Virus genome (UHGV): UHGV-0042229
Direction: 5' to 3' (one strand)
DNA from: a virus
Length of the DNA stretch: 64,000 nt
The position numbers were made by a program, and so were the translations under genes. The notes beneath the pieces were generated by a model, which saw only the letters and a program-made list of their open reading frames with translations, made no database searches and had not been told where the DNA came from. Of this stretch, positions 2,232 through 61,899 are shown in pieces; position 1 is the first letter of the stretch, and each line of letters begins with the position of its first letter.

Positions 2232-2820
2232 GTATGCAACGGTCGATTTTGACCAGGTTAATGAAAAGGGGCTGAAATCCCTTATCGCGGCGATCAATAA
2301 AACCGGTGTTACGGTAATTGAGGTTGACTCCAGCAACCGCGCAACAACGAAAGATGGCGTTAAAGTTAAAACCGCAAAGCTGGTTCTTAACGACGGACAA
2401 ATTCTTGCCATACAGGTAAACGATACTGGCGATATATCGTCTGTGAGGCTGAATGGAAAAGCTATTCCTAACGCTCAGTCGCCGGATATCAAGACGCTTG
2501 GTACCGTCATGGGGCAAGCGGCCCGCAAAAACTCCGCAAAATTCCAGAAATCACTGATCGCCAAAGCGAAACGTGTTGCCAATCCGGTAGACAAGAAACC
2601 GGCAGTAAAATCCAACTTTCAGCGCCTGCAAGAGGCAAAACAGCGGAATGCTCAGGTGGTTGCCGCTTATAAATCAGCGCAGAACTCGGTGTCTTTCAAT
2701 CAACAGCAGATCACTGATTTGCGGGCGAAGCTGGATAAGGAGACAGGCCGACTCAATAACGAAAAGGCCCGAAATGGCGAACTCAAACGCCGTCTTAAGC
2801 AACTGAAAGCAGGAAATTAA
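2209..2820 (+). CDS. darA-operon protein (Hdf-like position)
   Basis: 203-aa ORF immediately upstream of and coupled to the 639-aa DarA-like gene. Confidence 0.4.
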   Translation: MCQMTKNKYATVDFDQVNEKGLKSLIAAINKTGVTVIEVDSSNRATTKDGVKVKTAKLVLNDGQILAIQVNDTGDISSVRLNGKAIPNAQSPDIKTLGTVMGQAARKNSAKFQKSLIAKAKRVANPVDKKPAVKSNFQRLQEAKQRNAQVVAAYKSAQNSVSFNQQQITDLRAKLDKETGRLNNEKARNGELKRRLKQLKAGN

Positions 2821-2821
2821 C

Positions 2822-4741
2822 ATGGAACAGTTCAATATCAATAAAGGGGTGACGATCAAGCCTGGGCTTGACGTGCTTCCCCCGCCAGTGACTGATGATG
2901 AATATCGCGCATTAATGGCCGGTGAGGACCGCTATCTGATGACGGAATCCAACACCCTGGAGGAAATCGAGGCTACGTTCTTCTATGACACGCCGATCCA
3001 CTGGTGTGCTACGGATTTACTGGAGGCGATTAGTTCTACTCGTTTGCAGTTACACCGGACCATGCAGGCATTTGTCCGGGCATTGAACCAGAAGCTGAAT
3101 GGTACCGGAATCTCTGCGGGGAGTGATAAAACGGGGGATGTGGCCCAGAGCGGCGCGCGCGCGATCGGCGGTGCTGAAATTGGCCGGGCACGGAACGTTA
3201 ACGGGCTGCCGGTCCTGCCAGCCATTATTCCGCTCAGTGATGGTCAGACTATCAGCATTCTGTTTCATAGCCCGACAGCGGAAAACCGGATCACCAATAG
3301 CGATACGCTGGTTGCTTTCCAGTTCTTACTGAATAAAAAAGACGTTACTCACACCGTTGCTCCGATGAGTGGACGTGATATGACGCTGGCGCAGGTCACC
3401 ATGAAACTTGCCAACCTTGCAGAGAAAAACTCGGCAAAATTCCAGCGTGCGCAGAAGAAGAAAAAAGCCCTGGTTGATGAAATAACCCAACTACAGGCTG
3501 ACAGTGACCAGAAAGAGGATGCCATGAGCGACCTCGCGGATCAGGTGGCAGTGGTAGAAGGGCAGAAGGCAGATCTGGAGCAGAAAATTAACGCGGTCGC
3601 CTCGGAAGCGGATTCTCTTTATGAAGAGAATGAGCGTTTGCAGGCGGAGATTGATCAGCTCAATCGAACAGGTGGGCGCGATACCATTGCTCCAGTGGCA
3701 ATAACTGGTGGGCACTCACGCGCGTTGACGGATCGCCTTGCCAGTATCAAAAATCGCATGCATATGGACGGTGAAGCGACGCTCAGTAATGGTGCATCAA
3801 TGAAGCAATTCATTGGGGATGGCGAAGGGTATATCCAGTTAACCGATCCGGATGGCAGCGTATACATGATCAAGGCTAAATCCATACAGGGTGTGGACAT
3901 GGCAGATGCAATCGGCAAGCTGTTTAAAGCCTATAAAGCGGGTAATGTATCGGAATACCTGGTCCAACCAGAAGAACATAAACCGGAAAACGTCGAACCT
4001 GAACCAGCGGAGGATACCGGTAGCTCTTCGCCTGAACCAGAAGTCTCTGTAGGTGCATATCGATATGCCCTGCAAATGCGTCCGGCGGCCCCTGGCGCAA
4101 TACCTGAAGGTAACAAAGCAATTCTGCCGCGCCCTGATGAAGGTGACCCGTATTATGAATATGCACGCTACGGCATTGCTACTTACGATACCCCGCTTTC
4201 TGATCAGCAAATGAGTGAGTACGACCTGAAGTTATTGCCTCGCGAGGATTCTTTCGATTTCCTGGCGAAGACACTTACTAATGGTCCGTTTGGCAAATAT
4301 GCACAAAAAGCTCTGGAGCTGGCCACCAGCTCACCAGACGAGTTCCGCGTAATGCTGAAAACTCAGTTTCAAAAAACTTTCCCCAATATTGCGTTTCCTG
4401 GGGGCGCAGGCACCGAGAAAATGGTGCAGAGCATGATCAATGCATTGCAGGCCGAAGTCGGTGAGATTACTCAGCCAGAACCGGCCCCGGCACAGCCTGA
4501 TGAAACGGTTAGCGAAGCAGATGCAGAGGCTAATAAAGCCATTGAATATCTCAATAACGTGATGGATATGCAAAGCACTGACATGGCGGAGATCCGTAAC
4601 GCCCGGGGCAATGTCCGGGAAGCGATTGCAGCCCTTCAGGCTGCCGGACGTTTTGAGGAAAACGAAGAGCTGGTTAACGGCGCAGCTCGCCACCTGGCTG
4701 ATCTGTTGGTAGCAATCCAGAAAGCGGGGGTAGCGGCATGA
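2822..4741 (+). CDS. darA: DarA-like internal head antirestriction protein
   Basis: 639-aa acidic protein with coiled-coil; position and size as in the P1 darA operon. Confidence 0.55.
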   Translation: MEQFNINKGVTIKPGLDVLPPPVTDDEYRALMAGEDRYLMTESNTLEEIEATFFYDTPIHWCATDLLEAISSTRLQLHRTMQAFVRALNQKLNGTGISAGSDKTGDVAQSGARAIGGAEIGRARNVNGLPVLPAIIPLSDGQTISILFHSPTAENRITNSDTLVAFQFLLNKKDVTHTVAPMSGRDMTLAQVTMKLANLAEKNSAKFQRAQKKKKALVDEITQLQADSDQKEDAMSDLADQVAVVEGQKADLEQKINAVASEADSLYEENERLQAEIDQLNRTGGRDTIAPVAITGGHSRALTDRLASIKNRMHMDGEATLSNGASMKQFIGDGEGYIQLTDPDGSVYMIKAKSIQGVDMADAIGKLFKAYKAGNVSEYLVQPEEHKPENVEPEPAEDTGSSSPEPEVSVGAYRYALQMRPAAPGAIPEGNKAILPRPDEGDPYYEYARYGIATYDTPLSDQQMSEYDLKLLPREDSFDFLAKTLTNGPFGKYAQKALELATSSPDEFRVMLKTQFQKTFPNIAFPGGAGTEKMVQSMINALQAEVGEITQPEPAPAQPDETVSEADAEANKAIEYLNNVMDMQSTDMAEIRNARGNVREAIAALQAAGRFEENEELVNGAARHLADLLVAIQKAGVAA

Positions 4742-57234: not shown

Positions 57235-60200
57235 ATACCCAAAACGTCATGAGCTACACCTCGAGTGTCCCCCTTACAAGACACAGAACGTCTGGCAAAA
57301 AGAGGTTCCACTCTGAAGCCACTGTCATGATAAAGCTCTCTGATGTTTGGCGCGCCACTGTTAGTAATGAGAACCTTTGCACCTCGACGATGAGCATCCG
57401 TCAACAGAGACACCAGGCGTTTTTGCTCTTCAAACTTAAAGTCATGACCGGAATAGTTCGTGAATCCCTCTGTATTTGGAAGCGGTTCATACGGCGGATC
57501 GCAAAAGATGACATCTCCTTCTCCGGCAGCTTCAATCACCGCTGCAAAATCACCGCATACAAACTCAGACCGCCCTTCCGCACCGAGGAAGGCTTCCATC
57601 TCCTGTAATGGGAAATACGGAGTTTTATACTTCCCATAACCGACATTGAACTCACCGGCCTGGTTGTAGCGCGTCAATCCGTTAAAACAATGTCGGTTCA
57701 GGAACAAAAACGCCGCTGCGCGATGTAAATCATCATAGACTTGTTTGTTAAACGCATTCCGTACTGCCAAGTATCCCTCCTGGGTGTTGTAGTCCAGGAA
57801 AAAACGATGTGCCAGAGTGATAAGTGAATGCTCCTCGCGTTGCAGAGTCTTGTAAAAGTTAATCAGGTCAGCATTCACATCATTTAGCAGATTTTCCTGG
57901 TATCCGGCATTCATGAAGACAGCTCCGCCACCGACGAAAGGTTCAATCAGGCGCTTCCCTTCTGGCAAATAGCGAAAGATTTGTTCCAGAACACCAAATT
58001 TTCCACCGGCCCATTTGAATATGGACCGTTCGAATTCTGCCGCTGGTTTAACTTTTCGCTCTTTTGTTTCACTTCCTTCTTTCTGCCGACATACGGCCTT
58101 AGTAATCCGATCGCCAATCCAGCGCATTACTGGTATTGCCATACTATTGCCGATCGCTTTGTAACGCGGTCCGTCAGCTGCAAGCATTGCGGCCTCTTCT
58201 TCGCTTAAATCTGGATAGTGATTGTGCAGATATGCCAGTTCATCTGAATTAACTTTTTTACGCTTTTCCGTAGGGATCAACGTATGCCAATCAGGAAAAC
58301 CTTGCAGCCTTTCACATTCGACAGGGGTAAGACGGCGCATTCTACCGTCGCCGAGCAATACAATTGGTGCTTCATGGTTACATGTCAAAGTTGGTGCCGA
58401 ATTATCGGTTTTTATCTCAGCCCCTCCTTGCCCATGTGCCATGGCAATTATGTTTGTATCATCGCAAGTTCTGATAGCGATGTTTGAAGTATATCTGGTA
58501 GTTTCCTTCCCCTCGCCTCTGCTCGGCGCAATATTCCGGCGCACGCCTTCGAACTCAAAAAGTACCGTTGCGGGATCGAGGTCTGTTCGAGCACTTGCGA
58601 CAACAAACACGCGTCGGCGTCGTTGTGCCACTCCGAAGTATTGGGCATCAAGGATTCTCCAGGCCACTTTTCGCTGCGGTCCATAAATACAACCACACTG
58701 CGGCCACTTTGGAGCATGGCAACCGGTTTTGACATCCCACCGCCAGAATGCGTTACTTTTTCCTGATTCAGGTCGATCACCTGGTTCGAATGGCGCATCT
58801 TCTCCAGCCAATCCGGCAAGGAAACATCCGAAGGCGTTATCTGCCGATGACAAGACTCCTGGGACATTTTCCCAGACGATAACGGCTGGTTTGAGAAATG
58901 ACTCAGCCCGTTTGTCGTCAATTGCATTTGCAAGCTCCACATACTTTAAAGTTAGCGCGCCACGCTCATCATCAAGCCCACCACGTAATCCAGCGATACT
59001 GAATGCCTGACAGTTATGGACCACCGCACCATTGAGGATATAGGAATGATCACCTTCGACTTCTATGTTGTATACAGTATCTAGGCCTACCGATTTAAAC
59101 TCTTTGACTGTTCGTAAAAGCATTCCATGAGCCAATCTTGATTTACGTGACAATTTCTGCGGGCAGATTGTTACCTGATAATAATTCCGTTGATTTACCA
59201 CGCGATCCTCAATCACTTTTTTGGGCTTAACTTCAATAAAGCTGACCGAAGAAACATAACCACAAGTCTGTGACAACTCCGCAACGCCCCAAGCAAGCGC
59301 AGGACTAACACTATTAATTCTAAATCCCGCTTTACCACTTGGTGTCCCATCAGTATCAAGATAGCCTTGTAAAAACACATGACGCAATGGATGCGACATA
59401 ACCCATGCAGGGATACGCTTAGCATGGCTTAACTCGCCAAAATGTTCATTAAGCCAATTGGCATAACACGTATCATTCAAGGTTACTTTGATGCTCCCTC
59501 GGATTTCGCTTGCCACGGAAAATATGTTTTCTGGTATGCGGCAATGAAACTTTCTCAATTTCTGGCAATTTATGCCAAAAACAACCGCCTTCTTAGATTT
59601 ACCTCTCCATCTCCTAATATATCCATCGCCAACATAAGCGCCCGCAAGATACATAGCCTGTTCTTCAGACAAGAACCGAGAACAAATATCTGGAGATGCA
59701 ATATTGAAATTAGTTAGAGCACACCATTGATATCCCGGCATATCACATGCTGCTCGCCATTCCGGTTCAGACAACAACTCTCTCTTAAAATATGTGCCAT
59801 TTTTCCGGGTGTTTTGGGCTTTCCACCGAACCGCCAGGAAGGGATGGTCATTGGTTGTTCTTATACCTAAAGGCTGCCCAACGGCATTAAGTAACCCCGT
59901 ATTAGCTATTTTTGAACCAACTCTTTTTACTTGTTGTAACCGCCCGAGATGACTGACTACGTAATCGCCAGGGCAAACATCTTCTATTGGTTTATAACCA
60001 TTTTTACAAAGAACCATATGCCCCGCGGTAAAACATGGTGTCCCTCCCACCAGCACATCAGGGGCTTCAATTTCTCCAGCCTGGACTTTTTGGGCGAGTT
60101 TTGTCATGTCGCCAAGGTTGGCGACATGGGGCCAGTGGTACGCAAGAACGGCAGATGGAAAAGGCTCGATTTCAGCAAACCACGCCGGACGCATACCCAA

Positions 60201-60266
60201 CGGTTCCCAGGCAATACTCGCGGCTTCAATTCCACTGCAAACAGATCCATAGCACAGCTCTTTCAC
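57225..60266 (-). CDS. dmt: Dmt-like bifunctional DNA methyltransferase (C5-cytosine domain with intein, plus Dam-like N6-adenine domain)
   Basis: N-terminal C5-MTase motifs [13 protein letters not shown]...[25 protein letters not shown]; C-terminal Dam-like [19 protein letters not shown]. Confidence 0.85.
59013..60035 (-). mobile_element. 341-aa intein with LAGLIDADG homing endonuclease inside dmt
   Basis: Insert begins CFTAGHMVL, ends GAVVHN followed by +1 Cys; [11 protein letters not shown] and [11 protein letters not shown] motifs; block B TTNDHPF; splits GGTP|CQAFSIAG. Confidence 0.8.
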
Positions 60267-61168: not shown

Positions 61169-61517
61169 GTTGTAACCCTTGAATATCAACCACAGAAAGC
61201 TCGTCTTTGTAGAAAAAGGCCAGGTTGTGGCACCCCCTCGTTTGAGCGTATGAGCTGGGACCAATTTCGTTCTTCCAGACAAATGGCTTCAAATCCGTAC
61301 GGCGAAGCATAAAAACGCGATTTGTTCCGCTCTGATTCCCAATGAGGCAAAAGCCTTCTTTCACCTTGATAGCCTGCAAGTTGTCGAGTTCACCGCTGGT
61401 TACACGGCTATCGAACTCCTTGCGGCTTATTAGCTCCATCTGCATCTGACGACTCCAAACAAATGCCCATTGAAGGGCGATGGCTGAATGGTACCGAAAA
61501 TACGACATAAAAAACAA
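61161..61517 (-). CDS. hypothetical protein upstream of hrdC (Uhr-like position)
   Basis: 118-aa ORF; first gene after a C1 operator. Confidence 0.4.
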
Positions 61518-61533
61518 TATTTATTAGAGCAAT
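61517..61533 (-). promoter_or_regulatory. C1 operator (1 mismatch)
   Basis: ATATTTATTAGAGCAAT at the head of the uhr-hrdC-dmt operon. Confidence 0.65.
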
Positions 61534-61614: not shown

Positions 61615-61899
61615 GTGGCAAGTATTGCAACAAAAGACAGCATTTGTTCGGGGCACGGAGGATTCCCATCCAGGCCTCCTGTAGAGAGTGAAGCACTACT
61701 TAAAGTCAACGGAGTCGAAGTGTTAGTTGATGGTAAGCAATATGCACAGCATACCGATGGAAACAGTACGCACGGTGGGCAAGCTATATCAACCAGGGCA
61801 TGGTTTACCGTCAATGGTAAAGGGATCGTATGCGTTGGTGACCCTGTTTCATGCGGATCTACCGTAGCGTCCGGAGACGGCCTGGTTCAGGTAAGTTAG
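61615..61899 (+). CDS. PAAR-domain protein
   Basis: 94 aa with CSGHGG and DPVSCGSTVASG PAAR-like motifs. Confidence 0.55.
   Translation: MASIATKDSICSGHGGFPSRPPVESEALLKVNGVEVLVDGKQYAQHTDGNSTHGGQAISTRAWFTVNGKGIVCVGDPVSCGSTVASGDGLVQVS

Follow-up and report, generated by a model that had tools for sequence, protein, structure and literature searches.

Inteins that join a Hint splicing domain to a nested LAGLIDADG endonuclease with two motifs are known from PI-SceI (Saccharomyces VMA1), PI-PfuI, PI-PkoII and the TliVMA intein. In phages, inteins have been described in N6/N4 DNA methylases of actinobacteriophages (Kelley et al. 2016, PMC5050341), and the accessible text of a 2025 survey lists C-5 methylase (IPR001525) as an actinophage intein host (bioRxiv 10.1101/2025.01.02.630785). 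As with the Dmt intein reported here, these elements sit in phage DNA methyltransferases, are patchily distributed and have been horizontally transferred. They are, however, actinobacterial, and the accessible text of these reports gives no insertion site within the C-5 methylase and draws no link to P1-like elements or Enterobacteria. A full-text literature search returned no description of an intein in a P1-like Dmt, nor is one mentioned in the accessible portions of Kelley 2016, Novikova 2016, a 2023 methylase paper and the 2025 actinophage survey; matches in papers on CASP14, Halobacteria and a Thermus phage were coincidental. The intein of P1-like Dmt thus does not seem to have been described. 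For phage P1 itself, the annotation gives the cytosine activity of Dmt only as 'perhaps at C5 cytosine'.

The insert in motif IV of dmt

The window analysed here, a stretch of 64,000 nucleotides from the virus genome UHGV-0042229, carries on its minus strand a P1-like dmt gene, which near-identical records annotate as dmt or 'Dam family methyltransferase'. The reading frame starts with GTG, as in the annotated P1 dmt, and encodes a precursor of 1013 amino acids (113.1 kDa). Exactly 341 stop-free codons (residues 78-418, CFTAGHMVL...NGAVVHN) are placed precisely between Pro77 and the catalytic Cys of the C5-methyltransferase motif IV (GGTP/CQAFS, with the slash at the insertion point), so that ...DVLVGGTP precedes the insert and a Cys codon directly follows it. 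The 341 residues amount to 38.3 kDa with a pI of 9.4, and their coding sequence has a GC content of 42.6% compared with 48.5-54.5% in the exteins. The features of the locus are as follows.

61517-61533, minus strand: C1-repressor operator-like site, one base off the consensus, located upstream of uhr-hrdC-dmt where P1 has Odmt/Op68
57225-60266, minus strand: dmt reading frame, 1013-residue precursor with an N-terminal C5 methyltransferase (split by the intein) and a C-terminal Dam-type N6-adenine methyltransferase (domain models)
60036-60266, minus strand: N-extein, residues 1-77, ending ...VLVGGTP, the first half of motif IV (alignment)
60036-60038, minus strand: Pro codon CCA at position -1 (allele comparison)
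59013-60035, minus strand: intein, 341 residues (translation, domain models, alignment, fold)
59997-60035, minus strand: N-terminal intein block with the Cys1 nucleophile; C1, F2, A4 and G5 invariant in 11 family members
59838-59867, minus strand: intein block B, T61-x-x-H64 (TTNDHPF); T61 and H64 invariant in the family
59622-59648, minus strand: first LAGLIDADG motif, LAGAYVGDG, acidic residue D137 (sequence, family alignment)
59346-59372, minus strand: second LAGLIDADG motif, LQGYLDTDG, acidic residue D229; Pfam LAGLIDADG_3 covers Dmt residues 298-362
59013-59075, minus strand: intein blocks F and G, ending His-Asn (VVHN); TIGR01443 match, N341 invariant
59010-59012, minus strand: Cys codon TGT at position +1 (Cys419), aligned with the PCQ Cys of M.HhaI
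58047-59012, minus strand: C-extein part of the C5 methyltransferase, with the second half of motif IV and motifs VI, VIII, IX and X (PF00145 and TIGR00675 stretches)
58338-58517, minus strand: variable cassette of dmt between motifs VIII and IX, the presumed target-recognition region (alignment)
57315-58013, minus strand: uninterrupted Dam-type N6-adenine methyltransferase domain, residues 752-984 (PF02086, 190.8 bits; TIGR00571, 248 bits)
57207-57234, no strand assigned: bivalent C1 operator (Oban-like) overlapping the dmt stop codon (P1 annotation)

The gene shares its operon, operators and domain fusion with P1 dmt and P7 dam, and the position of the upstream operator-like site agrees with the annotations of both phages. 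Its product is 91% identical to P1 Dmt and 97% identical to P7 Dam, the latter being identical around the insertion point. Unlike the gene analysed here, P1 and P7 are without the 1023-nt intein: reference P1 Dmt and P7 Dam (672 residues) read GGTP/CQAFS with exactly residues 78-418 absent, and the P7 gene is smaller by exactly 1023 nt, with neither a gap nor a substitution at the junction. Reference P1 further differs by a long variable cassette and by G74W beside motif IV, whereas the cassette here is of the short P7 type, and the Pro77 codon is CCT in all empty alleles and CCA in this one. The annotated P7 dam also contains a predicted internal late promoter.

An initial annotation, made from the sequence, had read the insert as a LAGLIDADG intein at 59013-60035 that splits motif IV between Pro and Cys, and this reading holds to the base. 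The hallmarks it quoted (N-terminal Cys, TTNDHPF, two LAGLIDADG motifs, and His-Asn followed by Cys) are all in place, the alignment with P1 Dmt and P7 Dam confirms a clean insertion of 341 residues, and the expected length of about 672 residues without the intein (1013 minus 341) equals that of P7 Dam. Its remark that P1 Dmt is not known to carry an intein is right for the reference phage, but the element here is a P1-like phage-plasmid and not reference P1.

Profile searches with the insert against intein models agree with the assignment as well. Pfam LAGLIDADG_3 (PF14528) reaches 33 bits (cut-off 22.5) and Hint_2 28.5 bits, only just above its cut-off of 28.4; the NCBIfam intein C-terminal model TIGR01443 scores 28.9 bits (cut-off 15.6), and Intein_splicing stays below threshold (18.3 against 35.8 bits). 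Each of the two LAGLIDADG motifs contains its metal-binding Asp (D137 and D229). The C-terminal blocks align to the C-terminus of the Spl DnaX mini-intein. As a PDB sequence search with the intein yielded marginal matches only, a fold search was needed. With an AF2 model of the intein (pLDDT 92.1, pTM 0.89), the top PDB matches were all intein endonucleases, led by PI-SceI (Foldseek E=3e-17) and including the TliVMA intein, PI-PfuI and PI-PkoII; the predicted Hint fold was recovered, PI-SceI and the VMA inteins matching over both domains. These best structural matches span E=3e-17 to 2e-9 at a sequence identity of only 12-17%, and they share Cys1, TxxH, the C-terminal HN and the +1 Cys with the Dmt intein. 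The latter is smaller (341 residues compared with 425-537 in the matched chains), resides in another host protein and has Pro at -1.

Removing the intein in silico raises the PF00145 score of the host from 104 to 124.8 bits, in one stretch (8-135) that spans the junction. The C5 motifs become continuous, and the unbroken motif IV with its PCQ aligns to FPCQAFS of M.HhaI, placing the +1 Cys on the catalytic Cys of the methyltransferase as the initial annotation had claimed. Taken together, the motifs, model scores and fold match to PI-SceI argue that the insert is not a chance pattern. It is precisely absent from close homologues and combines Cys1, TxxH, a His-Asn end and a +1 Cys with a predicted Hint fold. 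On the basis of these results, we consider it likely that 59013-60035 on the minus strand is a class-1 intein, composed of a Hint splicing domain and a nested LAGLIDADG homing endonuclease, and we propose that it splices and homes. In its features it looks like an ordinary, conventional intein.

Two other classes of element were considered and rejected. A bacterial intein-like (BIL) domain disagrees with the nested LAGLIDADG domain, the conserved +1 Cys and the location within the motif that is most conserved in the host; the only match of the intein to a BIL domain in the PDB sequence search was non-significant (E=0.9). A free-standing endonuclease or an intron does not fit an insert that is in frame, stop-free and flanked by Hint halves on both sides.

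Distribution and signs of mobility in P1-like elements

The intein is present in about 27% of P1-like plasmids. We found it in 133 of about 492 PLSDB records carrying dmt, in 27 of about 104 IMG/VR alleles and in 152 of 5,426 complete E. coli genomes. Besides those of P1 and P7, 75 dmt alleles were empty. To our knowledge, E. coli has been treated as an intein-free organism, although its P1-like phage-plasmids carry this intein widely (about a quarter of them). Flanking sequences of a record deposited as a P1 isolate (OP279344, del res del mod) deviate by 1-2% from reference P1, and hence the record does not show the intein to be present in common laboratory P1 stocks.

All 30 P1-like copies of the intein are 1023 nt long, free of stops and intact in their splicing residues, and they represent 16 alleles. 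At a nucleotide diversity of 0.006, the intein is 2-6 times less variable than its flanks, for which the values are 0.039 (N-extein), 0.014 (C-extein) and 0.015 (hrdC). The synonymous marker at codon -1 separates the two states completely, with CCA in all 29 alleles that carry the intein and CCT in all 75 that do not (Fisher p=2e-26). Farther out on the N-side are markers at -22, -48, -104 and -118, which 66-79% of the intein-carrying alleles share but almost no empty allele has, a gradient consistent with co-conversion. The dmt gene of the window itself lacks these four markers, which indicates a shorter conversion tract. Moreover, all combinations of N-extein haplotype and variable cassette occur together with the intein. 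H62, whose intein is 100% identical, has the long cassette and is therefore not the source of the window. Sporadic distribution, low diversity and co-converted flanks are therefore seen together, and they point to mobility. They fit endonuclease-driven homing and ordinary homologous recombination between co-resident plasmids alike.

The two domains of the intein evolve differently, with a pN/pS of 0.10 in the splicing domain (9 synonymous and 3 non-synonymous segregating sites) and 0.60 in the endonuclease domain. The endonuclease is thus under relaxed constraint and may be inactive in some alleles. In its extreme form, this would mean an intein that splices with a dead endonuclease, its patchiness and the mosaicism of its flanks being due to general homologous recombination among P1-like plasmids and phages that share a cell, and to vertical descent. 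Such a history is possible, if somewhat unlikely. It accords with the contrast in pN/pS and with the fact that dmt is mosaic anyway, its cassette and N-extein haplotypes reassorting independently of the intein; furthermore, CCA is found in no intein-less allele, so that neither precise losses nor reciprocal exchanges at the junction are seen. However, no allele has lost either catalytic Asp or the conserved Lys, and within the family the two Asp residues (D137 and D229) show at least 90% conservation and Lys206 is invariant. The low diversity of the intein and the decay of donor-specific markers with distance from the insertion are as expected from repeated conversion starting at that site. 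The homing-cycle model predicts decay of the endonuclease at fixation (PMC1654191), but about 73% of the alleles are still empty. We retain an intein whose endonuclease is presumed active, residing in the kin of a phage that is among the easiest to manipulate. Its homing, co-conversion and fitness effects are directly measurable in a phage-plasmid for which P1- and P7-type elements provide natural empty targets.

Proposed splicing, methylation and homing

In the following model, splicing chemistry, endonuclease activity and timing of expression are inferred. Once repression is lifted, the uhr-hrdC-dmt operon with its C1 operator would be transcribed and the 113-kDa precursor produced. Cys1 would attack the carbonyl of Pro77 (N-S acyl shift), the +1 Cys would take over the N-extein by trans-thioesterification, and cyclization of Asn341 would free the 38-kDa intein. 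A final S-N shift would yield Dmt of 672 residues and 75 kDa with an intact PCQ, the splicing nucleophile later acting as the catalytic nucleophile of the methyltransferase. The freed intein, or the precursor, is then predicted to cut the intein-less dmt of co-resident or co-infecting P1/P7-type elements around the junction of ...GGTACGCCT and TGTCAGGCATTCAG..., and repair from the intein-carrying copy would transfer the intein. Read from empty alleles, the candidate cleavage target is GTCGGGGGTACGCCT/TGTCAGGCATTCAGTATCGC.

Because splicing would restore the catalytic Cys of motif IV, cytosine methylation should need splicing. The initial annotation had made methylation dependent on it; this stands for the C5 domain, which is interrupted in the predicted protein, but not for the Dam domain (residues 752-984), which is intact in the precursor and probably requires no splicing. 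The intein bears on whether the C5 domain of Dmt is active, and tests of cytosine methylation in P1-like elements must consider intein status.

As a rule, neither natural nor engineered inteins work when residue -1 is Pro (PMC6486613), and on that account Dmt might splice slowly or inefficiently. Pro nevertheless precedes 27 of 39 related inteins located in motif IV (see below), which suggests that the family is adapted to it. A native Pro at -1, common to most same-site relatives, is of practical interest, as most tested inteins fail there.

Another reading takes the locus for a relic, in which splicing has become inefficient or the C5 domain has lost its function and the precursor is a Dam enzyme with a dead N-terminal appendage. 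We regard this as doubtful. Apart from the poor record of Pro at -1 in most tested inteins, it draws on the P1 annotation, which treats C5 activity as hypothetical, on G74W next to motif IV in reference P1, and on a few intein-carrying alleles (L007, L008 and NZ_CP012497.1) in which the N-extein is broken by stops or frameshifts and the intein is still intact. These alleles imply that the C5 domain is not indispensable, although the aberrant upstream region of L007, a poly-G frameshift, is probably an assembly artefact. A relic is difficult to reconcile with strong purifying selection on the splicing domain, with splicing residues preserved in 30/30 copies, with exteins that keep all C5 motifs and match PF00145 across the in-silico spliced junction, and with Pro as the majority state at -1 across the whole family.

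For the splicing-competent intein that we favour, a role beyond that of a passive parasite is conceivable, if speculative. With the insertion at the catalytic Cys of one domain, two cysteines (Cys1 and Cys+1) and an unfavourable Pro before the first of them, the precursor could splice slowly or conditionally, responding perhaps to redox state, zinc or how far lytic growth has advanced. In that case it would be a Dam-only enzyme whose cytosine methylation is switched on post-translationally. The freed endonuclease might serve as a weapon against intein-less rivals, cutting the dmt of competing P1/P7-type elements during mixed infection or co-residence and thereby causing marker exclusion. On this view the motif IV family would also be a natural source of Pro(-1)-tolerant inteins.

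Related inteins at motif IV

One scan of species-representative genomes identified 39 loci where a related intein is set in a motif IV context. All 39 have Cys1 and the terminal Asn, 36 have His-Asn, and position +1 is Cys in 38 and Ser in one. Inteins at this site of other C5 cytosine methyltransferases occur, for example, in Mannheimia haemolytica (a 'Hint domain-containing protein'), Metarhizobium album, Pseudoscardovia suis, Acetatifactor muris, Arthrobacter cryoconiti and a Desulfurococcales MAG. They are homologous to the Dmt intein (27-52% identity; 47-52% for same-site inteins in other Dmt-like methyltransferases), occupy the identical position before the catalytic Cys, and have the same conserved blocks, Pro prevailing at -1 and Cys at +1. 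They differ in host and methyltransferase subfamily, including the variants SPD/C and SPE/C, and none resides in a P1-type Dmt-Dam fusion. In an alignment of 11 family members, C1, T61, H64, N341, G132/G138, G224/G230 and K206 are invariant. Seven related hosts were spliced in silico, and all gave PF00145 matches across the junction. Motif IV of C5 methyltransferases is thus a widely used intein insertion point, in bacteria and at least one archaeon; our searches for descriptions of these other inteins returned database entries only.

As a finding that would speak against an intein, the initial annotation had named a resident domain of about 340 residues at this position in homologous methyltransferases. 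Homologous inserts at the same site do exist, but they are inteins themselves, given that Cys1, the terminal Asn and the +1 Cys are almost always kept and that close relatives lack the insert precisely. A permanently resident nuclease or DNA-binding module in a surface loop of the methyltransferase, for which one could cite these recurrent inserts in many taxa and the domestication of LAGLIDADG folds as DNA-binding modules (WhiA is among the weaker fold matches), is highly improbable, as the insert splits the PC dipeptide of a catalytic motif and not a loop, carries a Hint half on either side of the LAGLIDADG core, retains Cys1, TxxH, HN and the +1 Cys family-wide, and is missing with codon precision from alleles that are 97% identical.

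In the records examined, intein-carrying dmt genes are labelled 'Dam family methyltransferase' or 'DNA methyltransferase', and once 'DNA cytosine methyltransferase', with the intein unnamed. One RefSeq record splits the intein-bearing dmt into three pseudogenes.

Anatomy of the insertion in dmt

The dmt gene is set in a P1-like phage-plasmid, with hrdC/rdgC and uhr upstream, tRNA-Asn, tRNA-Thr and tRNA-Met downstream; the dmt region is 97-98% identical to its counterparts in E. coli and E. albertii plasmids of the P1-like type. The relevant features are:

57225-60266, minus strand: dmt ORF, 1013 aa, GTG start, intein inside
59013-60035, minus strand: intein
58338-58517, minus strand: variable cassette of dmt, present in the window as the short P7-type version
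N-terminal in Dmt: C5 cytosine methyltransferase (PF00145, four separate stretches)
Dmt aa 752-984, C-terminal: Dam-type adenine methyltransferase (PF02086)
61517-61533: C1-operator-like site with one mismatch, upstream of the dmt operon, at the position annotated Odmt in P1
57207-57234: bivalent C1-operator-like site at the dmt stop, one half a perfect match, at the Oban position in P1

The two methyltransferase domains flank a segment that matches Hint_2, LAGLIDADG_3 and TIGR01443, a model of the intein C-terminus (Pfam, NCBIfam). Translation of 59013-60035 on the minus strand returns exactly the 341 residues reported in the initial annotation, CFTAGH...AVVHN, followed by CQAFS, and the re-derived coordinates of the intein blocks each give the expected peptide. 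That the insertion is clean was borne out by alignment: P7 Dam (672 aa) and reference P1 Dmt (754 aa) run straight through the insertion point (...GTP↓CQAFSIAG...), leaving exactly 341 columns empty, and the nucleotide sequence of the intein-bearing dmt is exactly 1023 nt longer than that of the P7 gene. The GC content of the intein is 42.6%, versus 48.5-54.5% for the exteins. As determined by megablast against phage genomes, the same 1013-aa gene occurs in OP279344, a deposited P1 isolate, and a 1095-aa version in RCS47 and vB_EcoM-Ro157c2YLVW. Since the 1013-aa dmt of the former (locus L001, OP279344.1, 'Escherichia phage P1 isolate del res del mod', host MG1655 Z1) carries the intein, at least one phage deposited as P1 has it; its flanks differ from the reference P1 sequence by 1-2%.

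An intein-only query against 5.8 billion proteins retrieved methyltransferase-embedded relatives and a few in other hosts, and nothing else. Eleven relatives were taken into an alignment, in which C1, F2, A4 and G5 (block A), T61 and H64 (block B), K206, N341 and the glycines of both LAGLIDADG motifs are invariant, while D137, D229 and the +1 Cys are conserved to at least 90%. The AlphaFold2 model computed from this 11-member alignment is confident (pLDDT 92.1, pTM 0.89), and its best fold matches in the PDB are intein endonucleases only, namely PI-SceI (E=3e-17), TliVMA, PhoVMA, PI-PfuI and PI-PkoII, with free-standing LAGLIDADG enzymes ranking after them. Comparison with the PDB by sequence only is weak; the last 41 intein residues align with the C-terminus of the Spl DnaX mini-intein. 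In architecture and mechanism the insertion is like PI-SceI, a conventional class-1 LAGLIDADG intein of that type. We consider it likely that the element is a true intein, able to splice and thereby to restore the C5 active site; its endonuclease could equally well be active or inactive at present.

The methyltransferase active site

Joining Dmt aa 1-77 to aa 419-1013 in silico raised the PF00145 score from 104 to 124.8 bits, with a single stretch (aa 8-135) spanning the junction. In M.HhaI, Cys81, the Cys of the PCQ motif, is the catalytic nucleophile. The spliced junction region aligns with M.HhaI (phmmer) and matches its PCQ, so that the Cys used for trans-thioesterification would also be the residue attacking cytosine C6. 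This alignment and the continuous PF00145 stretch uphold the central proposal of the initial annotation, a double role of the +1 Cys. Its corollary, that methylation would depend on splicing, probably applies to the interrupted C5 domain but not to the Dam domain, which is whole in the precursor and should work without splicing.

Scanning one genome per species with the family alignment yielded 260 relatives, and among the 68 full-length matches inspected, 39 are inserted in motif IV, in the forms GxP↓C...N↓CQxxS, SPD↓C...N↓C(K/T)HFS and SPE↓C...N↓CTxHS. Their hosts are Firmicutes, Actinobacteria, Proteobacteria, Bacteroidota, Cyanobacteria, CPR bacteria and a Desulfurococcales archaeon; all seven hosts spliced in silico match PF00145 across the junction. 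We also weighed the alternative that this segment is a resident, non-splicing domain of such enzymes. Homologous inserts indeed occupy the same site; however, the residues required for splicing are retained in them (Cys1 and the C-terminal Asn in 39/39, the +1 Cys in 38/39), and they are therefore allelic inteins. The one deviating member (L073, Sphingopyxis sp. GW247-27LB, 2501-3547) has Ser at +1 (AGTP↓C...HN↓SQGFSLAG); splicing may still work there, but the spliced methyltransferase would be without its catalytic Cys. In Mannheimia haemolytica, a 47%-identical intein at the same site (P0011, 439 aa, on 578 contigs) is followed by a C-extein of no more than some 20 residues (VVHN↓CQSDKGGTVKASGGGFEWRE); an intein that looks intact is thus kept in a shortened methyltransferase gene found widely in this species. 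Distant relatives with 22-25% identity were found at two other conserved sites in proteins of archaeal MAGs (L081, L085, L087-L089, L098, L107, L108; L078, L083, L086, L090, L091, L097), one ferredoxin-like (...WPAVDYGR↓C...N↓CVFCGLCVDACPFDA) and the other possibly a ribonucleotide reductase (...NPLGMGSA↓C...N↓CFVLDVPDS).

Pro at position -1 has generally defeated natural and engineered inteins (PMC6486613). In Dmt it is the native residue, and it is the majority state among the motif IV relatives (27/39), which makes adaptation of this family to Pro at -1 likely. Splicing of the Dmt intein may be slow or conditional. The C5 activity of Dmt is listed as hypothetical in the P1 annotation, for which a substitution in reference P1 Dmt (L004, AF234172) might account: G74W, three residues ahead of the catalytic Cys and beside motif IV, changes the VLVGGTP of the other four aligned alleles to VLVWGTP, and TGG at codon 74 is confined to reference P1 among 104 junction sequences compared. 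The N-extein is disrupted in a few intein-carrying alleles. Two IMG/VR P1-like contigs have an in-frame stop (L008, KKV*AGEIESP) or a poly-G frameshift (L007) there with the intein intact, either as sequencing artefacts or through recent inactivation of the C5 domain.

Signs of mobility, and spread among P1-like elements

All 30 P1-like intein copies examined (16 alleles) are 1023 nt long and free of stops. The intein has a nucleotide diversity of 0.0060; the corresponding values are 0.0387 for the N-extein, 0.0140 for the C-extein (first 480 nt) and 0.0148 for hrdC/uhr. With an approximate domain boundary taken from the predicted model, pN/pS is 0.10 for the splicing domain and 0.60 for the endonuclease domain (Fisher p=0.03), as the homing-cycle view predicts for an element that must splice at all times but depends on its nuclease only now and then. 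When 29 intein-carrying alleles were compared with 75 empty ones, the last N-extein base proved fully diagnostic, Pro77 being CCA in 29/29 and CCT in 75/75, respectively (p=2e-26). On the N-side, variants at -22, -48, -104 and -118 are shared by 66-79% of the alleles with the intein and by no more than one empty allele; on the C-side, variants to +160 are present in 83-97% versus 17-39%, and breakpoints in recombinant intein-carrying alleles lie at varying distances from the insertion. Together, the diversity and flank data show the pattern left by recurrent gene conversion that begins where the intein is inserted; this conversion may have been started by the endonuclease or by general recombination, both of which fit these data. 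The window allele belongs to a minority junction type (6/29): its N-extein is P7-like apart from four additional synonymous substitutions in the final 15 nt, and the distal donor markers are missing. This pattern points to an independent event in which only a short tract was converted.

In PLSDB, the intein is present in 133 plasmids, against 492 records with the Dam part of dmt (occupancy about 27%); IMG/VR holds 27 loci with the intein versus 77 empty junctions, and it was found in 152 of 5,426 complete E. coli genomes, where plasmids are its usual location. The records examined label the gene 'Dam family ... methyltransferase', 'DNA methyltransferase' or, once, 'DNA cytosine methyltransferase'. 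One RefSeq/PGAP record (L113, NZ_CP012497.1, 81311-82288 and neighbours) shows three pseudogenes in place of a single intein-carrying dmt, namely 'DNA adenine methylase', 'LAGLIDADG family homing endonuclease' in the middle and 'Dam family...', the last marked as frameshifted; all other records examined make no mention of an intein. Inteins in phage N6/N4 DNA methylases are known from mycobacteriophages (PMC5050341), and a 2025 survey names C-5 methylase among actinophage intein hosts (bioRxiv 10.1101/2025.01.02.630785). In the literature searched, which covered few subscription journals, we found neither a description of an intein in P1-like Dmt nor motif IV named as a shared insertion site. 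The biology is as expected, yet the intein offers a useful and tractable case on account of its host (E. coli, P1 family), how often it occurs, its absence from annotations, a +1 Cys that would double as the catalytic residue, and Pro as the native -1 residue.

Variable cassette and C1 operators

A second dmt polymorphism, unrelated to the intein, is the cassette between motifs VIII and IX. Comparison of the window with L002, L004 and L014 distinguished at least three types, namely the short P7-type, the long P1-type (+82 aa) and one represented by L014 ('GEGKEVAGNVGNGIKSGSHW'); long versus short cassette explains the 82-aa length gap between P1 and P7. Alleles with and without the intein each occur with the short and with the long cassette, the cassette reassorting freely with the intein and with N-extein haplotypes. 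Its variation probably changes the cytosine target specificity.

The conserved operator upstream of dmt, together with the P1 annotation, suggests that Dmt would be expressed only once C1 repression is lost. The P1 C1-operator consensus ATTGCTCTAATAAATTT has 15 matches in the window at up to three mismatches (0.3 expected by chance), among them 11019, 26720/26803, 41591, 57218 and 61517, which is consistent with an immunity regulon of the P1 type that is complete across the window. A small PAAR-motif-like ORF, the UpfC homologue (61615-61899, plus strand), is oriented divergently to the dmt operon, and the three phage tRNA genes downstream (54892-56552, minus strand) encode Asn-GTT, Thr-TGT and a CAT-anticodon tRNA, the same as in P1.
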